A stretch of DNA of 64,000 nucleotides from the IMG/VR virus record IMGVR_UViG_3300010163_000006, positions 64,001 to 128,000 of that record. One strand, written 5' to 3'. This DNA is from a virus. Taxonomy: Duplodnaviria > Caudoviricetes. Within the stretch, counting starts at the first letter, position 1, and each line of letters opens with the position of its first letter. Shown piece after piece: positions 29,089 to 61,406 of this stretch. The notes beneath the pieces are model-generated. The model ran no database searches and was not told the origin of the DNA. It worked only from the letters and a program-made list of their open reading frames with translations. A program made the translations under genes and the position numbers.

Positions 29089-29122
29089 AAAAAATAATCC
29101 CCCAAATATTTGGGGGATTATT
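29089..29122 (-). terminator. Intrinsic terminator closing pentamer array 1
   Basis: aataatcccccaaa-ta-tttgggggattatt hairpin; the plus-strand A-tract is a U-tract on minus. Confidence 0.8.
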
Positions 29123-29130
29123 GTCTCTTC

Positions 29131-29586
29131 ACCAAGCATCACAAGACTGAACCAAGCCTCACCATGACAGAACTAAAATAAACTATACTTAGCTTCACCA
29201 TCACTCTACATGACGTTGCCTCACCAGTACCAAACAACACAATACCTGACAATATCATACCATGACGATACTTGGCTGAACCATCACGTTAATATACCCG
29301 ACACCACTCAACTTTACCAATACACCACCCACTTCAATACACCTGACAACACTCTACCAATACATGACGGGACTGAACGATGCCACACCAACACATTGCA
29401 TCACCCCACGAAACATGACAAAGCCTTACATTCACTTAACTCTGCAACACTATGCGTAACCTTAACGTTACTGTGCAACTCACAGCTATGCCTTTACTGA
29501 ACATCAGGTCATGTAATACTATATACATACCATCACATGACCTGACTACACCACACTTTAATACGCCACACTTCACTTTACCATGG
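29131..29586 (-). ncRNA. Pentamer-periodic array 1, (NN-NGY)n; candidate guide-RNA array
   Basis: Plus strand parses as accaa gcatc acaag actga accaa gcctc ACCATG acaga actaa aataa actat actta gcttc ACCATC actct acatg acgtt gcctc ACCAGT...; begins about 20 nt after the RAMP stop codon and ends at a terminator. Confidence 0.75.
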
Positions 29587-29605
29587 CTGTGATATTTGTG
29601 GCTGA

Positions 29606-30238
29606 TTAGTGTTCTGAAGCATTACCCCCGATTACATTTCCGTCGGCATCAAGCTCTTCCCAGACAAATTTACCCTTTCCACTGTTGCGCCACTGACCCG
29701 TTCCGTGGTAGAATCCATAGTCCAACCATTCACGAACGAGTGTTTCATCTTCATCCACCATACACAGTACGGTGAATTCGTTAGTGGAGCCGACCGGCAC
29801 GGTTTCTGAACATGCCAGTGAAACACGTTCACCCTGTGGTGTGTTGGCTCTTAACGGTCTCTGACACAACGTTATCTCACCATTAACGTTGATGACGGAT
29901 TTGCGTTCCTTGATAAAGATCAGACCGTCTATCTGTTTCTTAAACGCTTTGATCTTTGATGAAGCGGTACCTTTAACCTTTTTGAGGAAACTACAGGTCT
30001 CCTTGAAGTAACCTCGCCACTGATAGTCGTAAATGATCAGATTTCCGTCATCGTCTCTCGGGAATACGGTTGTTCCCTTTTCAACAGTCGGATCAACACC
30101 GACAGATGCTACCTCATCATCGATTGTGGTTGCATCGGGTGACTTCGAAGCGATGTAGCTTCTGTAGATTTCCTGGTCATTGGTTGCTGTGCCAAGCAGC
30201 TCCTCGATAAATGTTACGCGTACTCTGATTTCTTTCAT
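29606..30238 (-). CDS. Stand-alone Cas7/RAMP-superfamily protein
   Basis: N-terminal strand IRVRVTFIEELLG; IYDYQWRGYFKE (Cas7-like iPgss.kG.lr position); ETVPVGS; C-terminal glycine-rich loop GTGQWRNSGKGKF; AAAGGAGGT RBS before ATG 30238. Confidence 0.75.
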   Translation of the reverse strand: MKEIRVRVTFIEELLGTATNDQEIYRSYIASKSPDATTIDDEVASVGVDPTVEKGTTVFPRDDDGNLIIYDYQWRGYFKETCSFLKKVKGTASSKIKAFKKQIDGLIFIKERKSVINVNGEITLCQRPLRANTPQGERVSLACSETVPVGSTNEFTVLCMVDEDETLVREWLDYGFYHGTGQWRNSGKGKFVWEELDADGNVIGGNASEH

Positions 30239-30341
30239 AGAAATCAACCTCCTTTAGATAAATAATAAGTAGTTTATGGATATCTCATTTCTGATATATC
30301 CATAATAATTAAATATATTTCAAAAATAAGAAAAATAGAAA

Positions 30342-30361
30342 GTCCGGGGATAATCCCCGGA
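30342..30361 (-). terminator. Terminator-like hairpin after the 30378 gene
   Basis: ccggggat-a-atccccgg stem with an A-rich left flank. Confidence 0.65.
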
Positions 30362-30377
30362 CATGAAATTCTTCTAT

Positions 30378-30764
30378 TTATGGAGCCGGATATATGACAA
30401 AAGTTTTCAGACCTTTGATCTTGAACCCGCCGTCTTCTGTCGGTTCTCCGAACACTCTTGGGACGGCAATCAATTTGGGATTGTTTGACACAAATTCCTT
30501 GATCATTTTGTCAGATTGGTCAAATTCAACATCTATCCACCCACCAACAAATCCCATATCATAACCAGTTATCACTCCTATGATATCATTTATATCAACT
30601 CTCAAATGTAAAATATCTACTGTTTTACAGTCTGTTCCCTTCACAACCTTCATACCAACCAAACCATGTGTAGATATATGTTTGTATAAGTCTTTAAATG
30701 ATAGACATTCGTTGATTCTGACGGGAATGGTTTTCCTGATCTTCTTAGGGATCCTGACTTTCAT
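30378..30764 (-). CDS. Hypothetical protein between the RAMP gene and array 2
   Basis: AAAGGAG RBS before ATG 30764; track ORF starts at 30785. Confidence 0.6.
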   Translation of the reverse strand: MKVRIPKKIRKTIPVRINECLSFKDLYKHISTHGLVGMKVVKGTDCKTVDILHLRVDINDIIGVITGYDMGFVGGWIDVEFDQSDKMIKEFVSNNPKLIAVPRVFGEPTEDGGFKIKGLKTFVIYPAP

Positions 30765-30790
30765 TAATTTATCACTCCTTTCCATATAAT

Positions 30791-30829
30791 AAAAAATAAC
30801 CCCCGTAAGGTGGGAGGAGGTTATTTTTC
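30791..30829 (-). terminator. Terminator-like hairpin closing pentamer array 2
   Basis: aaaaaataacc-ccc...ggaggttattttt imperfect stem flanked by A/T tracts. Confidence 0.6.
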
Positions 30830-30845
30830 TTTAAGATATGTCGTT

Positions 30846-32372
30846 ACCATTACTCTACAAGACCCAACTTTGATGAACCATTACTGAACCAAACCGCGCT
30901 TTGCCTTACAACACTTGGCATCGCCGCACCGTAACACCGCTATACTGGGCTGAACTATGCCTTTACGCAACAGCACTATTCGACGCTACACCATAACTTC
31001 ACAATACCCACGCGGTACAATGCGTTACAGGACATAGCCTTTACTGGTACCATTCGACACCTTACCTGCACATGACATCGCCACCTATCACAACACAACA
31101 CCAATACAGAACAATACCGAACGCCACACTACCTTTACGATACATACGAACACGAAGCTCAATATTACTATACTTAACATTACCCGTTACGTGACCATGC
31201 GGCACCTGACCTTACCAAAACATTACTCTACGCCTCCTGGCTTTACCCAAACATTACGCTCGCAGCATTACTGCACCATCACAGCACCATACGTAAACTG
31301 ACTATACATTACCGATACAATACGAATCAGTACGGAACATCACGGAACCCATTACGTAACGTAACGCCACTTGACCGAACTGCACCCTCACAAAACTATC
31401 CCATACTGTACCATTAATGTACACTGCGTGACTAAACACGACTCTACCTGTACTTTACTATGAGCAACGTATCTCCGCTCCGCTTTACCTTTACTAAGCA
31501 TTACCTGGTATTGCTTAACCTTGCCTATACGATACCAAGCGTGGCATTTCTTCACCGCACCGTTTACTCTACATTACTCGACTTCACTCCAACATTACCC
31601 TCACATGGCATCATAAGACCACACTTTACCTTTACGACACCTCACAGAACAGGACCAAACCATGCCTGAACATTACCTTTAGATCACAATACGCGACGAT
31701 ACTTCACCTTACCATTACCAGAGAAAACGTCACCATACCGATACCGCAACCATGCTTCACCTTACTTAACCCTTACTTGGCTTGGCGGAACAAAACTATA
31801 CTATACCGTTACATAATCATACCGCACCCGGCCTTACCCATAACATCACAAAACTTTTCTGTACACTTCCTTTGCGGAAACTATGCCCGACACAGCATCA
31901 CGACACTATACCGGAACGCCACGTCACTCTACGGTACACCACCATGCTATACCAGCACAGTGCATTACTTGACATTGCTTTACCTTACCAATGCTGTACA
32001 TCACAATACCATTACGAAACAATACCAGACTGCAACTCACCGCGCATCACCTATGCTAAACATTACGTTCAAGACCCCGCTTTACTGAACCTTGACAAAA
32101 CCAAACAGTGCCTCACCGAAGCATTACTTGACATTGCTTGACCATACTTCACATCACCTTTACTGAACGTTATGAGACAAAGCGTCACCTCACAGCACCA
32201 TTACTTGGCAAAACTTCACGTGACACGACGATACTTCACCTTACCATTACCCAACATGACAATATGACACCATGCGTTGCCGTTAGCCATACATAACACA
32301 ACATGCCCTCACAACGCAATACCTTTACAGAACATAAAAGCTCAGCACTACACTTCACCGATACGTCACATA
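30846..32372 (-). ncRNA. Pentamer-periodic array 2, (NN-NGY)n; candidate guide-RNA array
   Basis: Plus strand ACCATT actct acaag accca acttt gatga ACCATT actga accaa accgc gcttt gcctt acaac acttg gcatc gccgc ACCGTA...; about 1.5 kb, starting right after the stop codon of the 32373 gene. Confidence 0.75.
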
Positions 32373-33677
32373 TTATTGTTGAGATAAAATGTCATAATAT
32401 CGAGAGACGTCAAATCCCAGTTTGTTTAGCTTGTCTATAAATTCCTTATAAGACTTCCGACCCAGATTTCGTATCTTCATTATATCTTCAGGAGCAGTAG
32501 ATAATATATCACCAATTGTACGGATTCCTCCGCATTTCAGGGAATTGAAAGTCCTGACACTTAAGTCGATTAAATCTATATCCGTATCCTCTGTAAATTC
32601 AGGTATCTTCCCATCAACATCGAGAGAAATTTCTTGTGTTCGCAGTACCCCATACTTAAGAATCATCAACGCTCTTTTGTCCGCGATAATAGCGTTCGAT
32701 ATTTCTTCAACTGATTGTCTGGTATCAATACCCAAAATATGGATCAGAAATTCGACAGTCTCGACGTCACAAAGGTTGTCATCGAGATATCTCATGTTGT
32801 ATATGTTTTCATACACACGTCTACCCAAGCGTGTAGAATTCTTTTCAACAAGATGCCGCAGCTTGTTTTTGTGTTCTCCATAAACGATAGTCCTTAGTGC
32901 TCGGGCTTCTATTTGTCTTATTCTATCCGGAGTAAGATTGTATTCATTTGCTATCTCTGTCAGAGTCATGTGATCAATAAACCTCTTGTCAAGTATATCA
33001 ATATCTCTAATTTGTCTAATTGATCTTTGAATAAAGAGCTCGATATCTGTAGTATCTGTTCCGATAATTTCAAGATCATCTGAAAAGAAATCCATACCGT
33101 CTACTGCTGCAGCGATTAAGTTCCATGGATAGAGACTATATTGCACGGGGTATATGTTGGATATCATCTTTTCCATCCGTGTGAAATAAGGATTCTCTTT
33201 GTAATGGTAGATCTTTGCACAAGCGATTATGTTCGCAAGTTCACGCACGGTCTTGTAGATGTGGTTGTTATTTATCACCATCTCAAGTAGGTCTGGTTCT
33301 AACCATAATCGTGAGATTGTGACGTCGGGAGAAAACTTCGATAAACGGATATCCTCAGTTTTCCAGAACTTTGATTTCAGCTTATCGGTAGGGATACTAA
33401 CCCTTTGGGATACTAATGTCATTCCTGTATGTTCACTAATTGATTTCGGAGAAACTCCTAATATATTCCTATAACCAAAAGCGATTAATGTGTCGTCACC
33501 GATGGTTGACAAAAGATCGTCAATCTTTTTCATGAGTTTATCCTCATTGATTTCTTCAATATCATTCAGAGACAATCCCGGGAGAAATCCCTTCTCGATC
33601 AATCTCGTTATGATTGTTTTCACATCGACACCGGCTTCGAATACGTGGTTGTTAATAACTAATTCGCTAAACTTCAT
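32373..33677 (-). CDS. Sigma70 region-4 HTH + RNA polymerase alpha-CTD fusion protein (putative transcription regulator)
   Basis: ILDKRFIDHMTLTEIANEYNLTPDRIRQIEARALR (sigma region 4) and IDLIDLSVRTFNSLKCGGIRTIGDI...IMKIRNLGRKSYKEF (alpha-CTD). Confidence 0.85.
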   Translation of the reverse strand: MKFSELVINNHVFEAGVDVKTIITRLIEKGFLPGLSLNDIEEINEDKLMKKIDDLLSTIGDDTLIAFGYRNILGVSPKSISEHTGMTLVSQRVSIPTDKLKSKFWKTEDIRLSKFSPDVTISRLWLEPDLLEMVINNNHIYKTVRELANIIACAKIYHYKENPYFTRMEKMISNIYPVQYSLYPWNLIAAAVDGMDFFSDDLEIIGTDTTDIELFIQRSIRQIRDIDILDKRFIDHMTLTEIANEYNLTPDRIRQIEARALRTIVYGEHKNKLRHLVEKNSTRLGRRVYENIYNMRYLDDNLCDVETVEFLIHILGIDTRQSVEEISNAIIADKRALMILKYGVLRTQEISLDVDGKIPEFTEDTDIDLIDLSVRTFNSLKCGGIRTIGDILSTAPEDIMKIRNLGRKSYKEFIDKLNKLGFDVSRYYDILSQQ

Positions 33678-36424: not shown

Positions 36425-37819
36425 TTAAGAAGACATAAGTCCAAGACAGATGGTCGACCAATCCATCAGAGGTAATTCGATCTTTTCGGTAACGTAGTTA
36501 GTTACACAAGAGAAGTGGAACTTTTCGAAATGCTGAACGATTCCATCTTCTTTACATCCAAGGAATAAAGTATTCAGTTGGTCTCCATCAAAGTCCGCAT
36601 TAAAACCGGGAAGTGGTTCTGGAGGTAAACTGATCGTATCATCATTTACCTTGAAACGACGTATCTTTGCAATCTCAATAGAAGCAAAGTTGTTTGTCGG
36701 TTCTCTAAGGATCATGATCCATTGTTCTTTGTCGAGTATCTCTTGAAGGATATCGACTACCTCGGGATGAATCTTATAATCTCTGACATACAGATATGCC
36801 TGTTCAAGAGTGAAGTTATATCTGACAGATAAGATGTGTGTTATCTTGTACTGGAATGCGGTAATACACATTGGCAATGGCAGATCAACTTCATCGACGT
36901 TCAATGATATATCGAGGGTGATTACCGCACGACCAGAGAATGAAAACGTACCACCAACAATCTCTGATCTTACGAAACCATCCTTCTTTGAAACCTCATT
37001 CGTTATCAGATGCTCAGCAGCTTCAACCCAATAATTCTGAATAAAGTTCAATGCCTGAATCGTTTCGATTGGTAAAGCCATGTCTTTCAACTTGCATTGA
37101 ATCGAAACGATTTGTGAAAACCATTTATTGATCTTCGGGTAGAACATCGTCTCTGATGTCTTAGATACAGGACGGAATGCTGTTGAGTAGATCGGGATCT
37201 TCGAAGTGAACACAGCTTCTTTCTCTTGGATCAATGTCGCAAGTTCCTCTGTTGATTTACCACAAGCGGTCAATACCTCTTCGAATCTTTGGTAAAATAC
37301 ATCGTGTCCAAGACCTTCGTAAATCTGTTTCGACTTGGGTATTTTCTTCCTGATATATGCGATGTCGTTTTGTGCAATACGACCTGTTTTTCGGTTCTTT
37401 TTGTTCTCTGCAAAGTTCGTATCATTCTCATTATAAGGAACAGAGAAATCGGCCTTATAGTCTCCGAGAATATATTTCAACATATTTACAGACAATACTC
37501 TCTTGAGCATTGAATAATAGATTGGTGATATAACTTTGTGTGGAGATATATCAACCCATCCAGTATATTTAAAGTTCAATGAGCGAAGAGTGATCTCAGA
37601 GTTACAACGTGGGCATACTCGGCCAATGATATCTTGACCGATGAATGCACCACAGTCGCATCTGTACTCAACGTCCATGAACTTGGAAGAATTGATCAGT
37701 TGATCAACATTTACTGGAGCATACATATCTTCCTCTTCGTTGATTAAAAACCCATTGTGGGTAATCATGTCGATGATATACTCGTTCTCCAGATTTATTC
37801 TTTCAAGTGTGACGCCCAT
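36425..37819 (-). CDS. Phage multisubunit RNA polymerase beta' subunit, N-terminal half (probably non-virion RNAP)
   Basis: CDCG...CPRC zinc site, IPIYSTAFRP, FSGRAVIT, ILREPT, catalytic FNADFDGDQL near the C-terminus (split beta'). Confidence 0.92.
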   Translation of the reverse strand: MGVTLERINLENEYIIDMITHNGFLINEEEDMYAPVNVDQLINSSKFMDVEYRCDCGAFIGQDIIGRVCPRCNSEITLRSLNFKYTGWVDISPHKVISPIYYSMLKRVLSVNMLKYILGDYKADFSVPYNENDTNFAENKKNRKTGRIAQNDIAYIRKKIPKSKQIYEGLGHDVFYQRFEEVLTACGKSTEELATLIQEKEAVFTSKIPIYSTAFRPVSKTSETMFYPKINKWFSQIVSIQCKLKDMALPIETIQALNFIQNYWVEAAEHLITNEVSKKDGFVRSEIVGGTFSFSGRAVITLDISLNVDEVDLPLPMCITAFQYKITHILSVRYNFTLEQAYLYVRDYKIHPEVVDILQEILDKEQWIMILREPTNNFASIEIAKIRRFKVNDDTISLPPEPLPGFNADFDGDQLNTLFLGCKEDGIVQHFEKFHFSCVTNYVTEKIELPLMDWSTICLGLMSS

Positions 37820-37831
37820 GCTATGATCCTC

Positions 37832-39493
37832 CTATTTCATAAGCTCAAATAATTCAACAACCATGTCCAACAACAACAAGGTCATGTTTCCTGATTCATA
37901 GATCAATGGATTGTCCAATAACGATTCATCATTATGATTGACGATCGTGTATGAAGACAACACACAATTCATGATGTTCTCAACAAACACATTTACGTTC
38001 TTTTCAGAAAGCAAATATTCCTTAAGATTGTTGAGTTTAACATATTTCTTGATACCATTGATGTCCTTCTGTGTCAATGATCTCGTTGTGGTTGAAACCG
38101 TTTTTCCCATAAGGATATTAATGATGGGACTGTTGAGAGTGTCCTCTTCTGACAGACCATAGATATCCATTACGAGATGTCTGACATACAGCAACAGGAT
38201 ATACTTCTGCCTCATACTCAACGTGTTTGTTGAAATTGATGAATGGAACTTGTTGTACAATACCGTGTCAACAAGAATCTTCGAAAGATCATTCATTTGT
38301 GGTATGTGCTCGAGATAATAGTCGACAGGACTTACATCAATCTCCAACGCTATATGAGCGATGATGATATTCAAGTCCTTCAGCATACAACTGTATTCAC
38401 CGGGGTTAAATGAACGGATCATTGATATAGGTGAATTGGAACTGATGTTATCGGATAAGAGTTGTGACACATCATCAACATTCACAAGCGAATATCTTAA
38501 TTGACGTTTTCTCGTCAAGAACGATGCCTGCATGATGATTGCCTTTATCAATCCGACACATGAGTACGTCGGACGTTTATTGATCTTATCCCATGCTGAA
38601 GCAAATGTGAGCTTAATGAGTCCATCACACAAAAGGATTTTTCTCATGACGAATTGTGTTGTTGTTGGCGCAGTAACACCCTCAACTGCCTGCATATCGT
38701 AAATGTTTGCATTTGATGATATGCTCTGAATAACATTCTTGTTGACATAGTTATACAACAGAATGTACATGTGTGGGTTGATTTGATTCATCGCATATGA
38801 GAACGCACGAGCAAACAACTCATACATATTCTTTGGGGAGTTTCCTGTTAAACCAATAAAATGTTCAATAAAGATATGCATAACCTTTATCATGAATGAT
38901 ACGATATACATGTCTCTCAAGAAGTCCAAAGGGAACAATCCGACTGTATCATCACCGACATCGTTTTCCTCAACCATTTTTTTGATCTTGTCCATTGTCT
39001 TATCAGGAAACAGTATCTCATAGAGTTGCTTATAATACTCTTCAAAGGTTGCAATAGTATAAGTTTCACTGTCCGTGATATACTTTGCAATGAGCATTGA
39101 AGTGATGAGATCATTGTCATCATCATACAATGCCGTGAAGAAATTTATCTGTTCACAGATATAATTCTGCAAATCAACTCTTTTGGCTCTAAGTTGAAAT
39201 ACTTGGATGGAAGGATCGATAACATCATCCGGGAACAATGCCATGAAATTCACGAATATTTGAGAACCGTTGTGACGGATGATTATATCTTCCGGAATGG
39301 GTTCCCAATCAATGAATCGGGTTTTCTTGTATTTCCTTCCGTGCAAACCTGTTGGAAATCCATTATAAGGATATTCGGTGCCATGTTTTGCATTGTACGT
39401 ATACGTCGCATCAGGGTCATACGTATACGTGAGTGTCTTGGAAGATGGTTCTTTTTTGGCCATGACTCCCGTAACCTCCTTTTTTCTTTTCAT
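37832..39493 (-). CDS. Hypothetical 553-aa helical protein adjacent to beta' (candidate RNAP specificity subunit)
   Basis: Position in the operon and size only; no diagnostic motif. Confidence 0.35.
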   Translation of the reverse strand: MKRKKEVTGVMAKKEPSSKTLTYTYDPDATYTYNAKHGTEYPYNGFPTGLHGRKYKKTRFIDWEPIPEDIIIRHNGSQIFVNFMALFPDDVIDPSIQVFQLRAKRVDLQNYICEQINFFTALYDDDNDLITSMLIAKYITDSETYTIATFEEYYKQLYEILFPDKTMDKIKKMVEENDVGDDTVGLFPLDFLRDMYIVSFMIKVMHIFIEHFIGLTGNSPKNMYELFARAFSYAMNQINPHMYILLYNYVNKNVIQSISSNANIYDMQAVEGVTAPTTTQFVMRKILLCDGLIKLTFASAWDKINKRPTYSCVGLIKAIIMQASFLTRKRQLRYSLVNVDDVSQLLSDNISSNSPISMIRSFNPGEYSCMLKDLNIIIAHIALEIDVSPVDYYLEHIPQMNDLSKILVDTVLYNKFHSSISTNTLSMRQKYILLLYVRHLVMDIYGLSEEDTLNSPIINILMGKTVSTTTRSLTQKDINGIKKYVKLNNLKEYLLSEKNVNVFVENIMNCVLSSYTIVNHNDESLLDNPLIYESGNMTLLLLDMVVELFELMK

Positions 39494-48926: not shown

Positions 48927-51900
48927 ATGTTTTACCAAGAAGCTGCAGTAGATCTTTCACGCGGTACGAATTTCTTACCTCAAAGGACGAGATACCGTTT
49001 ACCGATGCAGAAGGCTGATACTTCGATATATTTGTTGTCAAACTCATTCGAATATGATATCGAAATGATAAAAAATATGCCAACCCCTAAATTGGATTAT
49101 AAGAATATTATAATTCCGTATCGTGTAATGGATAAGATCGGTGTTAAACCATTTCGATACAATAGTTCCATGAACGACTTCAATCGCAAAGTTTCTTATA
49201 TTCTCAAAAAGAAACTTATGCCGAATGTTAATCCATTGAGATTCCCTTATCCGAAAACAATCAAGGATAATCTTTACATATCAATGTCAGAGATTATCCC
49301 GATGGTCACACCATTCATGAGAACGTTTTCGAAACAATACATCCAAGAACACATCTTTGATTTGTTTAACAAAGTGATGGGCTTCTTTAATTTTTCAAAA
49401 AATAAGATTCTCATTATCGACATCCGGCATTACAAGATCTATCAAACATTAACTCTCGATACTTTCATGTCAGACCTGATAAATGCATTATTGACTGCAT
49501 ATATCATGAATGATCCCGCTAAGATCAAGAAGCTTGATTATGTAATAATCTTTAGAGCCCCTGATGCTGATTACAAGTTTGATTTATCGTTGTTCGAGAA
49601 ACGCGATGTTCAACGGATGAAAGCTATGTTACGAAAAATAGGAGTACCTTCTGAAATGACTGCAACTACATCCGAAGAAGCGGGTGAAAGTTTTGATTCA
49701 TTTACGAAGAACTCCGAACCAGAATTACCGGATCTTGCTAATATTAATGACGATGCTGATGATTCGGAAGATAAACCTGAGGTAGACGAAGAGGTTAAAA
49801 ACCTTCAAAAAGTGAATAACAATGAGACTAAATCAATCAAAGACACGATCAGTCAATTGTCTACTCAGTATGGTAAGGTAAAAAACGATGACAAAGCACC
49901 TGATGAAAATCGGGAATTATATAATGTCAAAACAATGGATATCAACGCCCAGTTGATAAAACGGATTAATCCTGCAACCGAAGTTGTTTCGAATTATAAG
50001 AAACTCTCTGATTCAATGGTTGCTGGTGGTTCTAATACCGTTGAAAAAGACATAATGAAAGATGCTGCAAAGACGATGTCTTCGGAAGTTGAACCGTCGA
50101 ATGTAAAAACTGTTATGAATGCAACATCATCAGCACGAGAGCGTGAGATACGAGAAAAACTTGGTCAGGTCAAATTGAACAATGTAACATTCAACACATT
50201 GACATCAATTACAGATGTTCCTAAACCTAAGCCGGTCAGACCAAGAAATCTCACAACCACAAATCCAGGAGCTCTTCATGGTTCATCGTTTGCACACATT
50301 GCAGAAGAGTACGAAGACAAACTACTCGACAGAGACATAGTTGCAACATTCATGAATTTCTCCAAACTTCCGGATGGTTTCTATGTTACCAACGTTGAAG
50401 TGACAGACATTTCAACGGTAACAAGTTTGATGAATAACTGGAAGGTTACACTTAAAAACAAAGAATCTGATCGTCAATCAATTATAAACATCAGAGTCCC
50501 CCGAGTTATCAATGGTCGATTCTATAACAACGGTGTTTGGTACAACATCGGAAAACAAGACTTCCCAATACCGATTCTGAAAATCAACAAGAAAACTGTT
50601 ATGTTGACAAGTAACTATAACAAAATTACCTGCACAAGATACGACACAAGATCGCTTGTTGACCTTGGTATGTTGGTTAAAGTAATCGATAAATTGACTG
50701 ATGATAATGGAAAAAATAAATATGTAAGAGTTGGTAATTCTTCCAATACCAATTCCCGATATGTATCGACAATTGAGTACGATGAGTATGCAAGGAAGTG
50801 GGTTCATTTCATTAACAAGGAAGCTAATTTACAAATATATTTTAACCGTTCACAATGTGACAAGGCATATTCGTTTGTTACTGTACAACCAAATGAGTTC
50901 TGTTGTGGAATGATAAATCAAGTTCCTATTATCCTGAATACCGATACTGGATTAACAAGAGACGGTAACACTATAACGGATACCATATTAAAGACCTTAC
51001 CGGAAGACATAAGGAATGCATATCGTAAACAGAAACCAGGTAAGATGTCAATGTATTCTGAAATCACTATAGGAGTTACAATTCCCCTTGGAGTTGCTAT
51101 TGCTGCATGGGAAGGAATGGGTTCTTTATTAAAGAAGAGCGGTGCAAAATATCAGTATGTTGATAAGAACTTTGATGACATACGATACTTCGTTATGCCA
51201 TTTAAAGATAAGAATCTTGCGATCGAAAGCTCCGTTGCGAACCAGTTGATCTTCAACGGTTTCTATCGAATTAATACGAAATCATACATGGCATCGGAAT
51301 TCGAAACACCGATTATGAATTCAAATTCGATCTATGTTGATATATTCAACCAGTTATTCTTCAAGCAATATTCACAGCTTACAACGTTTATCACATATTA
51401 TAATTTCTTCGTTGATGCAATAACGGCGGATGTATGTGATCACTATCATATTCCAAATGACATTGCCGGAATGTTGATATATGCCTCTAATCTGTTGGCT
51501 GATAACAATCATACTTCAGAAAACAATGCTGCATTGTACAGACTACGCTCATCGGAAATTATTCCGGCCATCATACATTACAGATTAGCGTTTGCAATAT
51601 CAAAATACAACAATAGTGTCGGATCCAAAACAAGAGGGCATTCAATCGCATTCAACCCGAATGAAGTAATGAATGAATTGTTAGCGGTTAATAATGTAGA
51701 GCCGATGTCTTCATTAAATCCTATAAATGAATTACATGCCAGAGAGAATGTAACAAAGAAAGGCTTCAAGGGAGTTAACTCAGATCGTTCATACACACAG
51801 GACAAACGTACCTATGAGGATTCCATGATTGGAAAGATGGCATTATCATCTCCTAATAATGGAACCGTAGGCGTTACACGTCAGCTCGTTGCGGATCCAA

Positions 51901-53198
51901 AGATTGAATCTGTTCGTGGTTATACATCAACAGATGGCCCTGAATCCGATTTCAATGATCTCCAATTGGCATCTTTCTCGGAATTACTCACACCGGGAAC
52001 AGTCACCAGAGACGATGCTATCCGAACTGCAATCGCAACATCCCAAACATCGCACATCGTATCAACCGAAGGCGCTCAACCAGTATTGGTATCCAATGGT
52101 GTTGATGAGATTGTTCCTGCGTATTTGACGGAGGAATTTTCGTATGTTGCGAGAGAAGATGGTGAAGTAATCGACATGAATGAGGATTACATCATTATCC
52201 AATACAAGAGTGGAAAAAAGAAAGCGATTAATATCAATCACAAACAATCATTCAATTCTGGCTCAGGTTTCTTCGTTGATAACAAACTCACATCTAATGT
52301 TGAGATGGGTGACAAGTTCAAAGAAGGAGATATCCTTGCATATCATGAGAAGTATTTCTCAAAGGATTGTGATGGTATTGTCAGAATGAACATAGGACCT
52401 CTTGCAAAGGTTGCATTCGCTGGATTGTATTCAACATATGAAGATGCTGGTCTTATCACAACCAAGATGTCTAAGAAACTTGGCACAAAGTATTCAATGA
52501 AACAACAAATCAAAATCAATGCAATGGATGATGTAGAAAGTATCGTCAAGATTGGTGATGAGGTTGAGGTCGGTGACCCATTAGTTGTATTCGGCATGGG
52601 TGGTACAGGAGATAAGGCAGTAGACAATTTCCTTAAATCATTTGGTAAGGATTCATCTGATGATGTCTTAAACAAAGCAAAGAGGGTAATTAAAGCCAAG
52701 AATGCAGGAACTGTTGTTGACGTCAAAATGTATACGACCAAGAGTATGGATAAACTGTCACCATCATTATTCGATATCTTTGATAAGTATTTCAAAGATA
52801 ACGTTAAACGTCGTAAAATATTGGACAAACATGACAAAACTAATTCCGTGTATAAAATGGATACGTTGTATTCATTACCAACAGAACCTCTCAAGGGTAC
52901 AACGATCAAGGGTATAACATGTGATGTGTTGGTTGAGATATTCATCGAACATGGTGATGAAGCATCTATTGGTGACAAGCTGGCCATCTATGGTGCATCA
53001 AAACAGGTTCTTTCGGAAGTAATACCTGAAGGACTGGAACCGTACTCCGAAACACGACCCGAAGAAGAAGTAAGTATCTTCGTTGCTCCGAGCTGTATCT
53101 TGAAGAGAATGATCCCATCACTCATTATCACTGCCTCGGCGAACAAAGTACTTGTCGAGCTAAAACGCAAAGTGAAGGAACTGTGGGAACAAGGATAA
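48927..53198 (+). CDS. Phage multisubunit RNA polymerase beta-like subunit (probably virion RNAP)
   Basis: beta motifs LNPINELH, SSPNNGTVG, DDAIRTAIATSQTSH, YEDAGLIT, IGDKLAIYGASKQV; long N-terminal extension beginning MFYQEA. Confidence 0.88.
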   Translation: MFYQEAAVDLSRGTNFLPQRTRYRLPMQKADTSIYLLSNSFEYDIEMIKNMPTPKLDYKNIIIPYRVMDKIGVKPFRYNSSMNDFNRKVSYILKKKLMPNVNPLRFPYPKTIKDNLYISMSEIIPMVTPFMRTFSKQYIQEHIFDLFNKVMGFFNFSKNKILIIDIRHYKIYQTLTLDTFMSDLINALLTAYIMNDPAKIKKLDYVIIFRAPDADYKFDLSLFEKRDVQRMKAMLRKIGVPSEMTATTSEEAGESFDSFTKNSEPELPDLANINDDADDSEDKPEVDEEVKNLQKVNNNETKSIKDTISQLSTQYGKVKNDDKAPDENRELYNVKTMDINAQLIKRINPATEVVSNYKKLSDSMVAGGSNTVEKDIMKDAAKTMSSEVEPSNVKTVMNATSSAREREIREKLGQVKLNNVTFNTLTSITDVPKPKPVRPRNLTTTNPGALHGSSFAHIAEEYEDKLLDRDIVATFMNFSKLPDGFYVTNVEVTDISTVTSLMNNWKVTLKNKESDRQSIINIRVPRVINGRFYNNGVWYNIGKQDFPIPILKINKKTVMLTSNYNKITCTRYDTRSLVDLGMLVKVIDKLTDDNGKNKYVRVGNSSNTNSRYVSTIEYDEYARKWVHFINKEANLQIYFNRSQCDKAYSFVTVQPNEFCCGMINQVPIILNTDTGLTRDGNTITDTILKTLPEDIRNAYRKQKPGKMSMYSEITIGVTIPLGVAIAAWEGMGSLLKKSGAKYQYVDKNFDDIRYFVMPFKDKNLAIESSVANQLIFNGFYRINTKSYMASEFETPIMNSNSIYVDIFNQLFFKQYSQLTTFITYYNFFVDAITADVCDHYHIPNDIAGMLIYASNLLADNNHTSENNAALYRLRSSEIIPAIIHYRLAFAISKYNNSVGSKTRGHSIAFNPNEVMNELLAVNNVEPMSSLNPINELHARENVTKKGFKGVNSDRSYTQDKRTYEDSMIGKMALSSPNNGTVGVTRQLVADPKIESVRGYTSTDGPESDFNDLQLASFSELLTPGTVTRDDAIRTAIATSQTSHIVSTEGAQPVLVSNGVDEIVPAYLTEEFSYVAREDGEVIDMNEDYIIIQYKSGKKKAININHKQSFNSGSGFFVDNKLTSNVEMGDKFKEGDILAYHEKYFSKDCDGIVRMNIGPLAKVAFAGLYSTYEDAGLITTKMSKKLGTKYSMKQQIKINAMDDVESIVKIGDEVEVGDPLVVFGMGGTGDKAVDNFLKSFGKDSSDDVLNKAKRVIKAKNAGTVVDVKMYTTKSMDKLSPSLFDIFDKYFKDNVKRRKILDKHDKTNSVYKMDTLYSLPTEPLKGTTIKGITCDVLVEIFIEHGDEASIGDKLAIYGASKQVLSEVIPEGLEPYSETRPEEEVSIFVAPSCILKRMIPSLIITASANKVLVELKRKVKELWEQG

Positions 53199-54485: not shown

Positions 54486-57400
54486 GTGATTATGAATTAC
54501 AATAAATGGTTCTATAATCAACATAAGTATCTGAAAAACATCCGCGATAACTCTGAGGGTTTTAATGATACTAAGTGGGTTACTATCAACAAGCGTTACC
54601 AAATACTTGACGATATGAAATCCGAATTGCTTTCACAAGGACTATTGGTTCATGGTAACAATACTGGATTTGATAAACTTATTGATTTGATGGGTAGATC
54701 TAATTATACATTCGAAGATATCAATGATTCTTTAATTGATACATACAGGGTTTCATTGCATTTTGCAATGAGTAGAAACCTTGTTAATACTCATGCGGTT
54801 ATGTTTCATTGTACCAATATGGATACCAAGAATGTTACTGCGGAGAAGTTCACTCATTACAGAATAATTGATGCGCCTTTTAATCAATTACACTTTGGAC
54901 ACCGTGATGAGTTCATACGTCAAAAGCTCCAGGAAATGCATAATATCAGTAATGGTAATTATGTTGATATGCCCCGATTTAATTCCACTCAATTCACCAA
55001 GATCCTTGATTTCTCAATCATATGCACAGTCAATGGTTATTTTTGTAACGATTGTAAAGTTGCTATTGATGATAAAGGTTTTAAATTCAAAGTAGGATGG
55101 CCTTATGCTTCGGATGTTGATTTCATTGTATACAAATTGGATCATGGTAGAATGATTTCCAATAACATATCACCAGATTATGTTAAGAAGGGATTGATTC
55201 CTTATGACGTACTTGGTGGTGTTGGTAAAGAGATGCTCGGATTAAAATGCATCATAAATGTGTTTGATCCTTTGTTTATCAAGACAACTTCATCTGTTCC
55301 TAACTTCGGTATATTCACCGAAAAGGGATTGGAGATAAGGAACTTACAAAGAGCCACATCTGATATGATTGATAGATTGTCGTCATCAAATGTGACCGTT
55401 GATGTATATGCCTTGAAATTCTTTCATGAAATACCCAACTTGTATCCCGCTATCAATTATTACGATATAATGGATACAAGGAATGTGTATGACGAAAAGA
55501 GCGAAAGCATTAAAACAACCGAGGGACATAACGTTGTCGCAACACCATCGAAGAACATAAACAAACTTGAAGTATGTACACCACCGATATGTCTTGATCG
55601 AGATGTATCATATTCATTTGATATCATCACAAGGTGTTTATCCATGTATGATGACATGATGTCATATGAAAGTGATTTAATCCGTGTTGGACAAGAATTG
55701 CTATATGGCAACCAAGATTCCTTCATGGATACATTCAAACCTATATTGCAGAAAATCTATTCTGGATTGTTGTCAATGTATAAGATCTATGAACAAGGAA
55801 GCATCATAACTTCATTGATTGAACCAGAACAACTTGGGCTGTTCTCCGACCTTTTGTCAAAAGTCCATAAGATTTCAAACATGACAGACTTCCGTCATTC
55901 TCAGAATTATTCCTTCGATGAATTATACGGAGAAAATTATAGAAACACGGTTAAGACTATAACAGACCCATTCAGGAATACAGCATTACTACCATTCGCA
56001 TGCATGAAATCAATCAAGAACAATTTCTTTGTTGATAACAACACAACTCGATTCAATCGACCAATATCGGAGCAGTGTTTCATTGCACTCCGATACCATA
56101 CAAATGATGGTTGTTGGTTGTTTGATTATCCGGACATCAAACATTTCCATGGGATCGGAAACACATTCTATGTCGATTCGAATCTCAAGGGTGATGAGAT
56201 ATTCAAGTTCTTTGTTCTTTACAGTGATACCGAAGCTCCTGATGAAAAGGATATTGAACATATGGATCTTAATACCGTATTGGATTTTGATTTGTTTTCT
56301 AAGGAAATAGAGAAACATATCGGGATGATTCGTTACTGGGATGCGGAATGTCGGTTGATGAAGTTATCAAAAATCATGTATAAGAAATACAATGATGAGA
56401 CATGTGTTCAAGTATTATCAAAGATTCTTAAACGGAAAATATCCGGAGATAACATTCTCAAATTATATCCTTCTGATATAAACTATGAAGAATCAAATGT
56501 CTCTTCAGATAGTTGGGAATCTTATGATGAAAACACTGAACGAGGTCCTTTCTCAATAAATTTCCTGTTTTATACCCTCTCTTTATTGAATAATAATGAG
56601 GATAAACTCCAATCGTATTTCTATAGATATCTTACTCATAATAAGTATCATAATAGATATACTGATATTGATATCTCGTCCATCATTGACAATGAGAGAT
56701 ATCCCATCAGTTATTCTCAATACACAATATCTCCATCAAGAATCCCCGACAGTTGTGCGAAACCGGATGTAAAGATATTCGCATATTATGGATTACCATT
56801 GATATTGGATTCAAAAGGAAGTAATCTGTATGAACCGTACCGATATGTCTTGAACGTTTATGATCCAGATACTAAGTATCCCATGATATCCGAAAACGAT
56901 ATTGATGGGTCTTTCTATGTTCAATATGACAATATCACAGATTATGCTGGACGGGTTGTTTCTTATCATAACAATATTCAAATCGGACATCTGATGACAT
57001 TATACCTGACAGATCTTTACAACTACATTTCTGAATTACAGACAAATTACAAAACAACATTCAACCAGTCAACCGTGATTGAGTCTGCTATAAACACAAT
57101 GAACGAACGAATTTCAACCATCAGAACACATATACTTGATAACGGACTTGATGATATTGATGGGGTTTCATCTTTTGGTAATGCTGTTGATATCGTTATC
57201 AATGATAATGAATTTATTCGTAAATTGAATGAAATGAAATCATTGATTGATTCAATCGATGTAATCAGGTATAACAATACAAATTCATCAATTCGCGTGT
57301 TCATAAATACGCATGTACTTGGTACGTTAAAACGTGCGTACGTTAATTTTGGTTTCAATAACAATATTAACAAACGTGCACGTATGCTGTACATACACCT

Positions 57401-60400
57401 GAAGAAGATCAATGAACCAATGAATGCATACACATTCAAGAAATGGTTAACTGATATAGATCTTCATACATTAACAAACCTTGATTCATTGGTTTCTAAT
57501 AATGAAAATTATGACATCGGCAACAATGTCTTCAAAATATTGGGTAATGCTTTATCTGCTTATATTGACAATGCTGTCGGTTTACTTAATGAATTGGATT
57601 CATCAATTGAGAGCTTGTCTGGTGATTTCAAGACAGATCATATTACACCCATTGCAACATTATGTGATGATGTAATAAACAAAATCATATTCGATATGTA
57701 CTCAATGAATTCAGTTGAGTATGATGCTTCTATTAAGTATGAATCAAAACCAATGTTCGTGGTTGTAGCTATCCCTGATACACAACACACAAAACCACCG
57801 ATCGGTGTTATAATATCTGGAACACGAAATCTCATATTCCAACCTATCACGCATAAAACCAATAATGGATATATGATAAGATCATTAGCAAACACATGTG
57901 AATATGTGTTCTTCGATGGTACACCATTAACAGGTTTGACAATGACTATACTGGACAAAGATGGTATTGTTATAGGTACACAAAATGTTTCGATGACATT
58001 TAACAGAACATGTTCTACCGCAGATAGAGTGAATGAATTCACCATGATTCCAAATGGAAAAACCACCGCAATTGATTTCGAAAATGGTCATGAATCATTT
58101 GATGTTGTAAATGGTTTGATTGTAAATGAGAAACATGCAGACATGAATTATGAGATGTTGATTGGAAATCATTTCACCCAACTCGATCATGAGATTGAAT
58201 ATGTATTGGAACCAACAACATGGCTACAGGGTTCCATCGATAGAATATACATTGAAAACCAGATGATCAATCGTATGGCAATAACTGATTTTGGTCATAA
58301 GGTATGTTCTAATGTATTCTTTAAACCCGTTCAGGTTATGCATATTCCATTGAATGAGAATGGATCAATTGATTCTGTAAATGGTAAATACTTTGAAGGT
58401 GAGACCATCTATCTCCAAACAAATGATGGTATGACAATATTCCCGGTTGTAATAACCAAAGTCGATCATTCTATAAACAAAGGATTCATTGAAGCTCGTG
58501 TTGACGATTGGAATTCTAAATGGTTTGAAATTACCGATCCAAATATGATTTCTAATTATCTTTTGAATGAGATCGAATGTTCTGTTATTGATGACAACAT
58601 GCGAAACTTCCTTGATGAGTTCTCTGATAGTGATATGCCGATATATTCAAATCCCACCAATCAAGTTATCGACATAAGTAATATCGACAATTGTTACGAC
58701 TTGCCAGGTGATCCAATGTTTGTTTCATCAAACTCAAATATTCTCCATAGAAGATTGAAGTGGATATTCAATGAAGTCGTACCAAATAGATTTATTGATG
58801 ATGACCACAAGAAGTATCGTTTTGTATACATTGCAAATGGATTCATCATGAATGATAATGACGAGATCAAAATCAACATGATCAATCATGATTTCAACAA
58901 TACAACCATACCGGAAAGATATCCTATCTTAAGAAGTGAACCAAACGACCACACAATTTGGGATAGGGAATTGAATCTGTTCCGTGACGAACAATTGCAT
59001 TCTCATATGAGAGAGAACACTTATTATCGCAATTATAACAACGCGATGTATGCATATTCTCAAGCGAAAACAATCCATGAAAAAGAAGTTGCTCTGTTAA
59101 ACGTTGATAAAGAAAAACGGAAAATGCAACGGGAACAAGAATACCAAAAGAGAATGGAACAATATTCCCGTCAACTCGAAACACCGACAACGTGGTATAA
59201 TGTTCATTCATATGAAGCATCACTTGTATACATTTCAAATGGTCGTGCTGATAGATTCTCTCCGAGTTTCGTTTCTAACATAAGAGATGTTGTTTATTCA
59301 AATGAATTAGAAGTGTTCTTATATGATTGGCAACACAAGAAATGGTTAGATCCTTCATCATATGACGTGTCAATCAAAATGGTTGATAATGTTCGTATTG
59401 ATGAAAATGATGACTACACAACAAACCGTGTTCTTCATACATTGACAATCAAACCGAAGGAAGGATTTTCTTTTTCCAATAAGATACTCATTTATTTCTC
59501 ATACGAGAAATCAAATGTATTCAATTCAATTGAGATGAATGAACCAAACTGTTTTGTCCGGTTCAAACCGTTATTATCTATTGATAATGAGATAACGGAT
59601 TACGATCCATATCGTGATATACGTATAAGGAAACACTTCGATGGTTATGAAAAATACAAGGTAGATGGTAGTGATATCCATATTAAGAGAGTAAATCGTA
59701 ACGGTAAATACACAAATACCCCAGTATTCAGAGTATGTGATATGAAGATAACCGACATCAATGGTGAACACACATTTGATGATATCGATAAATTCTTGGT
59801 GCGGACGCCATTCAAGGACATAACAACCACCAGAACATTCCATACTCCGGTATACAACACAAAAATATGTTCGGAGATTGATTCATTCGTTCCCGACAAG
59901 GAAATCAAACTCATATGTATTTCAAATAATGAGATCAATTCATATGATGGTAATATCTCGTCTGTTATGTTCAATGCAACAACCGCGTATGATGATGAAG
60001 GAAACCAAACAATCTTAATTACTAAATCCACATTGCCAAACTATGTTTCTGGTAAGTTCATATGCACAGTATTCCAGGATGACATGTATAACCCTGTAGG
60101 TGGAGTTATAGAAGTAGAAGTATCTTCCATTGAAGATACTGTTTACGAAGGAGACTGGTTGCAGGTTCCATTGTCATACATGAAGTATCGTGAGATTCCT
60201 GAGGAATTCAAAATCATTATGAAAAATCCAACAGAAGGAATCGTTGAAGTTACATTGGAAAATAAGTACATCAAACGTACTGATGACATCATAGACATCG
60301 ATAACAGCAACTTGATGAATCCTTTCGAATACTATTATGACAATAAACACTTTACAAGATTACCTATCTCTGATGTCAGAACTAATTCCAACAACAAACG

Positions 60401-61406
60401 ATTTGTTATTGATGAAGACATCAATCCCAACGTTAGTATTGTCAAATCTCCATATATTGGAATATGTAGATACTCATTGAATAGGATTCCTACTGACGGT
60501 ATGATAGACATGACAGGATATCTGCCTACACCGTTATCACGGGACAGATATGAATTCTGGGTTAATGGTAGATGTGTCATTAATGATAAGGATATAACGA
60601 TACTTTCACCAACATCTATTCAGCTTCGTAACATGAAATCATTAAGGAACTTTGAGGCAATCGAACTCGTTGATGATTTCAATACGGGAAATGAATTACT
60701 GGATGAAGGAACCGTATATGTTGATATCAACGGTAATAGTTATTCTAATTATAGACTGGCTATGTTAAGCAATTCTAAGATTCGCAATCAGGATATAATG
60801 TTTACATTCAATACAAATGTCCATAGGCCAATCCATGATTACACAAAAAACATTACTCCTTCGGCAAATAATCACGACATTGAAGAGGATATCCTTGATC
60901 ATGTTTCATTCGATGAAACCATTAAGGATTACAACAAACTGTACAACATTCCATCAATAAATGGAGTAACATTATTCCATACTAAATTACAGGGATTGGG
61001 TCTTTCGGAAATACCGAATGAAAAAATAATCGAATCCTTTGATAAAATATGGAAAATTGAAGAGACCACAAATCCGTTATTTATGAGGACACATCGTTCT
61101 ATGATAAACAATGAGAAGCTTCGTATATGTGCTAAACAATTGACAGAGCCTCATTGGAATAAGTTATCTGTTACAACGACTGGTATGTTCCTCGTTTATA
61201 CATTAGGACCTGTTGAGAAATACTTCTCTTTTTACATCTCAAAGAAACCGGATGGATTGATTGATGACGTAAAGAATACTGTTAAGATTATTCCATTTAT
61301 CACTTCGGGTGTATATGTCCTGATTGATAAAAAGTACCAGGGAATGTGGTTGCATTCAACATACGAAAAAACAAAGCCAATTCATCTAATTGGGAATACA
61401 AGATAA
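54486..61406 (+). CDS. Very large (2306 aa) probable virion structural protein
   Basis: Size and N/D/Y/I-rich composition typical of jumbo-phage tail/baseplate proteins; no enzyme motif seen. Confidence 0.5.
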   Translation: MIMNYNKWFYNQHKYLKNIRDNSEGFNDTKWVTINKRYQILDDMKSELLSQGLLVHGNNTGFDKLIDLMGRSNYTFEDINDSLIDTYRVSLHFAMSRNLVNTHAVMFHCTNMDTKNVTAEKFTHYRIIDAPFNQLHFGHRDEFIRQKLQEMHNISNGNYVDMPRFNSTQFTKILDFSIICTVNGYFCNDCKVAIDDKGFKFKVGWPYASDVDFIVYKLDHGRMISNNISPDYVKKGLIPYDVLGGVGKEMLGLKCIINVFDPLFIKTTSSVPNFGIFTEKGLEIRNLQRATSDMIDRLSSSNVTVDVYALKFFHEIPNLYPAINYYDIMDTRNVYDEKSESIKTTEGHNVVATPSKNINKLEVCTPPICLDRDVSYSFDIITRCLSMYDDMMSYESDLIRVGQELLYGNQDSFMDTFKPILQKIYSGLLSMYKIYEQGSIITSLIEPEQLGLFSDLLSKVHKISNMTDFRHSQNYSFDELYGENYRNTVKTITDPFRNTALLPFACMKSIKNNFFVDNNTTRFNRPISEQCFIALRYHTNDGCWLFDYPDIKHFHGIGNTFYVDSNLKGDEIFKFFVLYSDTEAPDEKDIEHMDLNTVLDFDLFSKEIEKHIGMIRYWDAECRLMKLSKIMYKKYNDETCVQVLSKILKRKISGDNILKLYPSDINYEESNVSSDSWESYDENTERGPFSINFLFYTLSLLNNNEDKLQSYFYRYLTHNKYHNRYTDIDISSIIDNERYPISYSQYTISPSRIPDSCAKPDVKIFAYYGLPLILDSKGSNLYEPYRYVLNVYDPDTKYPMISENDIDGSFYVQYDNITDYAGRVVSYHNNIQIGHLMTLYLTDLYNYISELQTNYKTTFNQSTVIESAINTMNERISTIRTHILDNGLDDIDGVSSFGNAVDIVINDNEFIRKLNEMKSLIDSIDVIRYNNTNSSIRVFINTHVLGTLKRAYVNFGFNNNINKRARMLYIHLKKINEPMNAYTFKKWLTDIDLHTLTNLDSLVSNNENYDIGNNVFKILGNALSAYIDNAVGLLNELDSSIESLSGDFKTDHITPIATLCDDVINKIIFDMYSMNSVEYDASIKYESKPMFVVVAIPDTQHTKPPIGVIISGTRNLIFQPITHKTNNGYMIRSLANTCEYVFFDGTPLTGLTMTILDKDGIVIGTQNVSMTFNRTCSTADRVNEFTMIPNGKTTAIDFENGHESFDVVNGLIVNEKHADMNYEMLIGNHFTQLDHEIEYVLEPTTWLQGSIDRIYIENQMINRMAITDFGHKVCSNVFFKPVQVMHIPLNENGSIDSVNGKYFEGETIYLQTNDGMTIFPVVITKVDHSINKGFIEARVDDWNSKWFEITDPNMISNYLLNEIECSVIDDNMRNFLDEFSDSDMPIYSNPTNQVIDISNIDNCYDLPGDPMFVSSNSNILHRRLKWIFNEVVPNRFIDDDHKKYRFVYIANGFIMNDNDEIKINMINHDFNNTTIPERYPILRSEPNDHTIWDRELNLFRDEQLHSHMRENTYYRNYNNAMYAYSQAKTIHEKEVALLNVDKEKRKMQREQEYQKRMEQYSRQLETPTTWYNVHSYEASLVYISNGRADRFSPSFVSNIRDVVYSNELEVFLYDWQHKKWLDPSSYDVSIKMVDNVRIDENDDYTTNRVLHTLTIKPKEGFSFSNKILIYFSYEKSNVFNSIEMNEPNCFVRFKPLLSIDNEITDYDPYRDIRIRKHFDGYEKYKVDGSDIHIKRVNRNGKYTNTPVFRVCDMKITDINGEHTFDDIDKFLVRTPFKDITTTRTFHTPVYNTKICSEIDSFVPDKEIKLICISNNEINSYDGNISSVMFNATTAYDDEGNQTILITKSTLPNYVSGKFICTVFQDDMYNPVGGVIEVEVSSIEDTVYEGDWLQVPLSYMKYREIPEEFKIIMKNPTEGIVEVTLENKYIKRTDDIIDIDNSNLMNPFEYYYDNKHFTRLPISDVRTNSNNKRFVIDEDINPNVSIVKSPYIGICRYSLNRIPTDGMIDMTGYLPTPLSRDRYEFWVNGRCVINDKDITILSPTSIQLRNMKSLRNFEAIELVDDFNTGNELLDEGTVYVDINGNSYSNYRLAMLSNSKIRNQDIMFTFNTNVHRPIHDYTKNITPSANNHDIEEDILDHVSFDETIKDYNKLYNIPSINGVTLFHTKLQGLGLSEIPNEKIIESFDKIWKIEETTNPLFMRTHRSMINNEKLRICAKQLTEPHWNKLSVTTTGMFLVYTLGPVEKYFSFYISKKPDGLIDDVKNTVKIIPFITSGVYVLIDKKYQGMWLHSTYEKTKPIHLIGNTR

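Follow-up and report, generated by a model that had tools for sequence, protein, structure and literature searches.

Six-nucleotide steps as candidate guide borders in two pentanucleotide arrays flanking a small RAMP gene of a phage genome

Two arrays of five-nucleotide repeats next to a small RAMP gene were analyzed in a 64,000-nucleotide (nt) stretch of phage DNA (Duplodnaviria, Caudoviricetes). This stretch, called the window below, comprises positions 64,001 to 128,000 of IMG/VR record IMGVR_UViG_3300010163_000006, a genome of 155,671 bp (38% GC) whose assembly is circular, as both ends of the record overlap. All coordinates refer to the window unless another contig is named. The locus is interpreted as a Viral Interference Programmable Repeat (VIPR) system with staggered arrays of the YNNNG type; the equation with the staggered arrays in fig. 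S18 of a 2026 preprint (10.64898/2026.04.26.720920) rests on the legend of that figure.

Every gene surrounding the two arrays lies on the minus strand, as do all array and terminator features described here. In the order of transcription, a sigma4/alpha-CTD gene is followed by array 2, a hairpin, an open reading frame (ORF) of 135 amino acids (aa), a terminator, the vipr gene, array 1 and a last terminator. The first gene (32373-33677) encodes a 434-aa protein in which sigma-70 region 4 (residues 227-262; Pfam PF04545, E 2e-8) and the C-terminal domain of an RNA polymerase alpha subunit (residues 364-418; PF03118, E 4e-17) are fused. Array 2 (30840-32372) begins directly after the stop codon of this gene, is divided into about 55 segments with about 300 GYNNN repeats in total, and is ended by a terminator-like hairpin (30800-30817). 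The 135-aa ORF (30378-30785) has its own terminator at 30342-30362. The vipr gene (29606-30238) codes for a small Cas7-like RAMP protein of 210 aa counted from an ATG, and its open frame reaches back to a TTG at 30247. Array 1 (29131-29590; about 90 GYNNN repeats in about 14 hexamer-cut segments) lies directly downstream of vipr. The unit of vipr and array 1 is closed by a strong intrinsic terminator with a 13-bp stem followed by a T run (29093-29122). No further array with a 5-nt period was found anywhere in the 155.7-kb genome.

According to the available text of the preprints, VIPR is a CRISPR-related RNA-guided DNA silencer that was first described in 2026 (10.64898/2026.04.26.720920), and its protein, Vipr, is a small ancestral RAMP (10.64898/2026.04.26.720920, 10.64898/2026.04.26.720927). 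The vrRNAs are there described as tandem YNNGG repeats of which the protein holds GGY, while NN pairs with double-stranded DNA (dsDNA), so that every third target base is skipped. As targets, mainly coding sequences of competing phages and satellites are reported, in which the wobble position is the one that is skipped. VIPR systems are divided into seven types, with NNNGG, YNNNG and NNNNG as alternative repeats. In addition to tailed vrRNAs, arrays separated by ribozymes and staggered arrays with overlapping vrRNAs are described (10.64898/2026.04.26.720920). In the filament, one Vipr protomer is bound per 5-nt repeat (10.64898/2026.04.26.720927).

Pentanucleotide units and six-nucleotide steps

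Self-match at lag 5 was 0.43-0.44 in 29131-29590 and 30840-32372, compared with about 0.25 in neighbouring genes, and the 5-nt period was missing from the two genes between the arrays (29591-30839). A first-pass annotation, made from the sequence alone, had assigned the pattern to a single span, 29131-32372, which contains both arrays and also takes in these two genes. Self-match at lags 31-36 (0.40) almost equalled that at lag 5. The maximum of the autocorrelation, which requires no model, drifted from 5 and 10 through 26/31/36 and about 62 up to lags of 93-98. The only possible explanation of this drift is a net step of +1 that recurs fairly regularly every 31-36 nt.

Both arrays were segmented with a Viterbi-trained tiling model, in line with the division into five- and six-nucleotide states, with a motif of the latter, that the first-pass annotation had proposed as a check. 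The tiling consisted of 315 pentamers, 57 hexamers, 6 heptamers, 1 octamer and 5 tetramers, that is, 64 plus steps against 5 minus steps. The claim that the phase shifts are not random and are mostly +1 is thereby borne out, as balanced frequencies of the two kinds of step, which would have spoken against it, were not found.

On the minus (gene) strand the unit is GYNNN: the first position is G in 93% of units, the second is a pyrimidine (Y) in 95% (T in 76% and C in 19%), and three variable positions follow. Read on the plus strand, pentamers have the form NNNRC and hexamers the form CNNNAC. The first plus-strand base was C in 91% of the hexamers and in 21% of the pentamers, in agreement with the RCC-NNN form that had been noticed at the steps. 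The step motif on the minus strand is G-Y-A-A-N-G followed by G-Y-A (GYAANG-GYA), and the step is more information-rich than the interior of the arrays. GTAAAG and GTAATG were the most frequent hexamers. Distances from hexamer to hexamer in the window were 26 nt (5 cases), 31 nt (10), 36 nt (13) and 41 nt (6), with few others. Their coefficient of variation (CV) was 0.50, compared with 1.07 in 2000 shuffles of unit order (shuffle minimum 0.79). The regular recurrence reported for both arrays was thus confirmed, with most steps 26-41 nt apart.

The array RNA folded no better than shuffled sequences (z = +0.41), so that there is no hidden hairpin repeat, in agreement with the first-pass annotation, where units lacking such a repeat had been expected. 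A search against Rfam gave sub-threshold noise only and no match to a CRISPR direct repeat. With Tandem Repeats Finder and a repeat search, no direct repeats of about 24-40 nt separated by unique spacers were detected.

The same organization was found in related viral loci. In 81 of 82 IMG/VR loci coding for a homologue of the 210-aa protein, a 5-nt-periodic array lies directly upstream or downstream of the gene, and on the same strand as this gene the arrays are always G-rich. Among 76 distinct arrays of relatives, 79% of the units were pentamers and 15% hexamers, the last base of the hexamer being G in 99%. Hexamers were spaced at 26 (243 cases), 31 (254) or 36 nt (211), which together account for 708 of 850 distances (83%). 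The border motif of the relatives, G-C-A-A-N-G followed by G-M-A, agrees with that of the window, and the shared form can be written GYAANG-G(Y/M)A. The second scaffold base depends on the clade: it is T in the window phage and its closest relatives, and C or A in most relatives from gut phages (G-M-N-N-N). In the border hexamers of the related arrays (L001-L082) it was C in 81%. The published Y is therefore not universal.

Related arrays were cut at the hexamers and the pieces were compared between phages. Four contigs with identical Vipr had identical arrays and were uninformative for this comparison, and no segment was common to the arrays of the window phage and those of its closest relatives (71-81% Vipr identity). 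Among the related phages, the same segments are held in conserved order, while single segments are replaced or lost, and homologous segments differ chiefly at the three variable positions. This turnover resembles the loss and replacement of CRISPR spacers. Between loci L007 and L010, an indel of 144 nt corresponds to exactly four segments and is flanked by two identical gaaacg hexamers. In 114 aligned pairs, 13 distinct clean indels of at least 15 nt were found; six of them comprise whole segments from border to border (7% at random placement), and these make up six of the seven indels of at least 47 nt. Four of the remaining indels represent one in-phase deletion of 20 nt. The right-hand breakpoints of homology between arrays lay within 7 nt of a border in 71 of 89 cases.

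A typical segment of the window (29461-29491) is 31 nt long and consists of five pentamers and the hexamer GTTAAG. The segment at 30879-30929 is a long one (10 repeats, 51 nt, final hexamer GTAATG) and served as the query of one target scan. Within array 2, the 9-repeat segment at 32199-32244 and the segment at 31677-31712 (both on the minus strand) share the preceding hexamer and their first four repeats and then diverge. They are 89% identical over 36 nt, the repeat on the plus strand being 31684-31719 / 32216-32251. The two look like paralogous guides against two variants of one target.

The Vipr protein and the bases read

An AlphaFold (AF2) model of the 210-aa protein was built on 21 homologues and had a pLDDT (predicted local distance difference test) of 80. 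Foldseek matched the model to type VII Cas7, Csm3, Cmr4 and Cas7-11 (E 1e-6 to 1e-4; template modelling score, TM, 0.5-0.55). In sequence searches with the family profile, Csm4 (E 8e-4) and type VII Cas7 (E 0.025) were matched, and a homologue in BFVD is annotated as a RAMP superfamily protein. From this predicted fold, the protein is a small stand-alone RAMP of the Cas7/Csm3 kind, with RRM core, thumb and glycine-rich loop, and the guess of a RAMP in the first-pass annotation was correct. The protein was assigned to no Pfam or PHROG family. At 90% identity its own family falls into more than 5000 clusters, at 50% into 2079. In one relative whose Vipr is 71% identical (L087:4189-5645; JGI 3300031760 contig), two tandem vipr-like genes of 214 aa precede a single 1-kb array. 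The search of representatives also gave proteins of 430-460 aa (P0128, P0147) in which a Vipr-like stretch occurs twice; these may be fused dimers.

For comparison, the Vipr of phage SUSP1 was located at L091:28474-29061 on the minus strand; all residues named in the structure paper were found at the stated numbers except 175, which is V (T in the paper). No similarity at the level of BLAST was found between this protein and the 210-aa protein. In a weak hhalign alignment, the G-loop GxGQWR of the family is paired with GVGDWR of SUSP1 Vipr. W186 and R187 are thereby aligned with W178 and R179 of SUSP1, where these two residues hold G2 and Y3, and the G1-binding D177 corresponds to Q185. A second G1-binding residue, H17, probably corresponds to T20, to judge from a hand alignment. 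Retention of the residues aligned with the G2 and Y3 contacts together with the change of D177 to Q185 fits the observation that G2 and Y3 are conserved inside segments while G1 varies.

The two bases after G-Y were designated a and b; in the canonical repeat their places are those of N4 and N5, and the third variable base, c, sits at the place of G1. The a,b dinucleotides were correlated with the usage of codon positions 1-2 in phage genes (r = 0.88 in the window, 0.80 in relatives). After removal of single-position composition, the residual correlation was 0.54 and 0.60, respectively, compared with 0.15 and 0.12 for b,c. In relatives, the codon-likeness of a,b was reached by 1 of 1000 permutations. 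Stop triplets were not depleted in a,b,c. As an indirect indication, the likeness of a,b to codon prefixes fits the published rule of reading two bases and passing over the wobble base, and the pattern suggests a bias toward the sense strand. A sense/antisense codon score of a,b was weakly coherent within segments of the relatives (3/500) and null in the window (208/500).

Eight reading models (including ab, ab_x, ab_xx, ab_xxx, bc_x, abc and abc_x) were applied in comparing all segments of the window and of the relatives with the phage genome and 87 related loci, and no target above shuffled guides was detected. The sole excess was a trivial self-match of ab_xxx to the arrays. The lack of matches to the phage's own genome above those of shuffled guides agrees with the absence of self-targeting reported in the VIPR preprints. 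Not one of 42 real guides matched its own genome exactly under any reading model, which shuffled guides occasionally did; this may hint at self-avoidance, at very small numbers. IMG/VR was scanned with exact patterns; such scans are a weak stand-in for the search of the preprint, which tolerated mismatches, and their outcome is therefore uninformative. The 10-repeat segment of the window gave three exact-pattern matches, with about two expected by chance in a rough estimate, and no other guide of the arrays matched these three loci. A 13-repeat segment of L038 gave no exact-pattern match in IMG/VR. For a 9-repeat segment common to four phages, 93 exact-pattern matches were obtained, mostly in frame with ORFs; they are scattered over several unrelated protein families, and their number is inflated by redundancy of the database.

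Guide borders and competing explanations

The hexamers are most probably the guide borders of a staggered VIPR array, a reading drawn from sequence comparison to which a probability of about 75% was assigned. The first-pass annotation had taken the steps as unit boundaries. This view is well supported by the quantized spacing of 26/31/36 nt in 76 arrays, the conserved motif, the cassettes shared between phages, and the indels that run from border to border in 6 of 13 cases. Each segment has a single canonical GGY, which is made at the border, where the last G of the upstream YNNNG unit becomes the G1 of the downstream one. A '1-nt overlap' of one vrRNA with the next would be expected to take the form of this G-GY border. 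As the array RNA has no excess of structure, nothing else in the sequence could separate the guides.

The proposed mechanism starts with two staggered vrRNA arrays that would form the 3' extensions of the minus-strand transcripts of vipr and of the sigma4/alpha-CTD gene. The latter gene and array 2 probably share a transcript. Both arrays lie between a gene and a terminator, which lends indirect support to an expression of the putative vrRNAs. By analogy with the solved SUSP1 complex, each 5-nt repeat would be bound by one Vipr protomer, which would hide the G-Y scaffold and offer a and b for pairing with DNA, with every third target base skipped. The 6-nt steps would act as guide borders: a segment would end in G-Y-A-A-N-G, and its last G would join the next G-Y to give the one canonical GGY that the segment has. 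In this way the long transcript would be divided into units of mostly 26-41 nt (5-8 repeats), either by cleavage of the RNA or by restart of the filament on an uncut transcript. Vipr is presumed to bind the RNA, which would be processed into guides that silence the DNA of competing mobile elements.

Four observations weigh against this reading. Staggered arrays are not among the architectures that were confirmed by small-RNA sequencing, as far as the available text of the preprint goes (10.64898/2026.04.26.720920). The hhalign alignment of the family profile with SUSP1 Vipr is weak, with an E-value of 0.036 over 100 columns. In a permutation test on the window only, the codon-likeness of a,b was accounted for by single-position composition (262/1000). 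Finally, if only a and b are read, each segment specifies 10-16 bases, compared with 18-32 in characterized vrRNAs. In a bolder reading, which we hold to be rather unlikely, the Vipr of this clade may have lost recognition of the first scaffold G, with canonical GGY kept only at the GYAANG-GYA steps, where it would set mini-filaments of 5-8 protomers as a start/stop signal. The roughly 70 guides of 10-16 bases would then act by number, by tiling, or by cooperation of neighbours on one transcript. Such guides would be shorter than any characterized RNA guide.

Other explanations of the hexamers were weighed against guide borders. The steps could relieve strain in one very long Vipr filament, with one extra nucleotide about once per helical turn and with guides that span many segments. 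The mean spacing of 5-7 repeats is indeed near the 5-6 protomers (six subunits) per turn reported for the SUSP1 binary filament (10.64898/2026.04.26.720927). However, the equivalent subunits of a helical filament need no periodic insert, and the SUSP1 vrRNAs have none. This explanation was considered improbable also in view of the spacing, which varies (26/31/36/41) within single arrays, the conserved 9-nt motif at the steps, which indels and segment swaps respect, and the contiguous target of 900 bp that it would imply, which is implausible. The hexamer could also be an element of the code, by which one more target base is skipped or read and neighbouring segments jointly read one longer target. 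Such a code would cure the low information content of guides with 5-8 repeats, and the weak coherence of the a,b score within segments of relatives speaks in its favour, although the corresponding value in the window does not stand out. It is an unlikely solution nevertheless, since single segments have been swapped between related phages without change of the adjoining ones, and the a,b of the hexamer unit is conserved (AA) and not variable.

At the level of DNA, a G-Y every 5.17 bp could phase a signal for protein binding to, or bending of, dsDNA. The mean period equals half a turn of B-DNA, and 31 bp correspond to three turns of 10.3 bp. The strong strand asymmetry, with array and neighbouring RAMP gene always on the same strand, the placement of the arrays between gene and terminator, and the hypervariable positions in a repeat that fits a published RNA code leave very little room for a feature of this kind. 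Random slippage or decay of a pentanucleotide microsatellite would account for the few tetramers and heptamers. It was given practically no weight against the ratio of 64 plus to 5 minus steps, the specific motif, the CV of 0.50 versus 1.07, and a pattern that is kept in 76 unrelated arrays. RNA sponges of the TRAP, Hfq or Rho type, telomere-like repeats and helical phasing of dsDNA had been among the candidates and were dropped in view of the adjacent RAMP gene and the VIPR literature. An identity as CRISPR-Cas was rejected, as the locus has no direct repeat/spacer array and no Cas families in its neighbourhood.

Genomic context and comparison with known systems

The genome codes for pieces of a multisubunit RNA polymerase of the phage type, a DNA polymerase, an NAD ligase and a UvsX-like recombinase, so that the system is phage-encoded, as is characteristic of VIPR. 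At 36425-39493 (minus strand), a 553-aa ORF without a match comes after a beta'-like fragment of 464 aa (Rpb1 domain 2, phrog_2987), and a beta-like subunit of 1423 aa (phrog_3148) lies at 48927-53198 (plus strand). This polymerase of the phage is reminiscent of jumbo phages, whose polymerases are split. A further ORF, at 54486-61406 (plus strand), is very long (2306 aa).

The 434-aa protein joins two modules that bind promoters and UP elements, an unusual combination, and its gene is situated directly 5' of array 2. It is possibly a DNA-binding accessory protein. The 135-aa ORF had no match in Pfam or PHROG. Neither of these two genes is conserved beside vipr in 87 related loci, and so neither can be called a vap.

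Both the system and, to judge from the legend of fig. S18, the layout of its arrays are already contained in the 2026 preprints, and the idea of unit boundaries is itself not new. The findings added here are the 26/31/36 quantization, the border motif, the evidence from indels, and the change of D177 to Q that correlates with the loss of G1. The segment lengths, quantized at 5-7 repeats and one extra base, the conservation of the border motif and the turnover of segments as cassettes between related phages go beyond the numbers given in the available text of the preprints. With about 70 guide units in one 155-kb phage, and with one array behind a sigma4/alpha-CTD gene, the locus is a large and clean example of the least-studied VIPR array layout. 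The segment lengths and the border motif provide direct predictions for small-RNA sequencing and for the engineering of multiplexed VIPR arrays without tails or ribozymes.

The backbone of class 1 CRISPR-Cas systems (Cas7/Csm3 on crRNA, CRISPR RNA) would share with the modelled protein a RAMP fold with thumb and glycine-rich loop and polymerization on a guide RNA at a fixed period. The period here is 5 nt with three variable bases, in contrast to 6 nt with five pairing bases, and the system is encoded by a phage. Direct repeats of 24-40 nt and spacers are lacking, and cas1, cas2, cas6 and cas10 were not found in the locus, nor were Cas families among the neighbouring genes.

The type II VIPR of SUSP1 consists of Vipr, vap1 and four vrRNAs, according to the preprints (10.64898/2026.04.26.720920, 10.64898/2026.04.26.720927). 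By analogy, the present system would have in common with it one protomer per 5-nt repeat, the contact of the G-loop W-R with the scaffold, and hypervariable dinucleotides; in both, the arrays flank vipr on its own strand. Each SUSP1 vrRNA is an RNA of its own, about 100 nt long, with 9-16 GGYNN repeats that are strict and run in a single phase without +1 steps, and it ends in a structured 3' pseudoknot tail. In the arrays of the window, by contrast, G1 is degenerate except at the borders, tails are lacking, and the units comprise 5-8 repeats. A homologue of vap1 is absent, and two arrays with about 70 segments stand against the four vrRNAs of the SUSP1 model system.

The closest likeness is to the staggered VIPR arrays. 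There, as here, a lone phage RAMP of about 20-24 kDa lies beside long non-coding pentanucleotide arrays with a fixed G-Y and hypervariable bases. Abutting guides are shifted by 1 nt, and there is no spacer-repeat structure and no tail or ribozyme between them. The available text of the preprint gives no spacing statistics and no boundary motif for such arrays, while in the present material the spacing is 26-41 nt in the window and 26/31/36 nt in the relatives. The locus is an example of a known layout and not a new kind of system.

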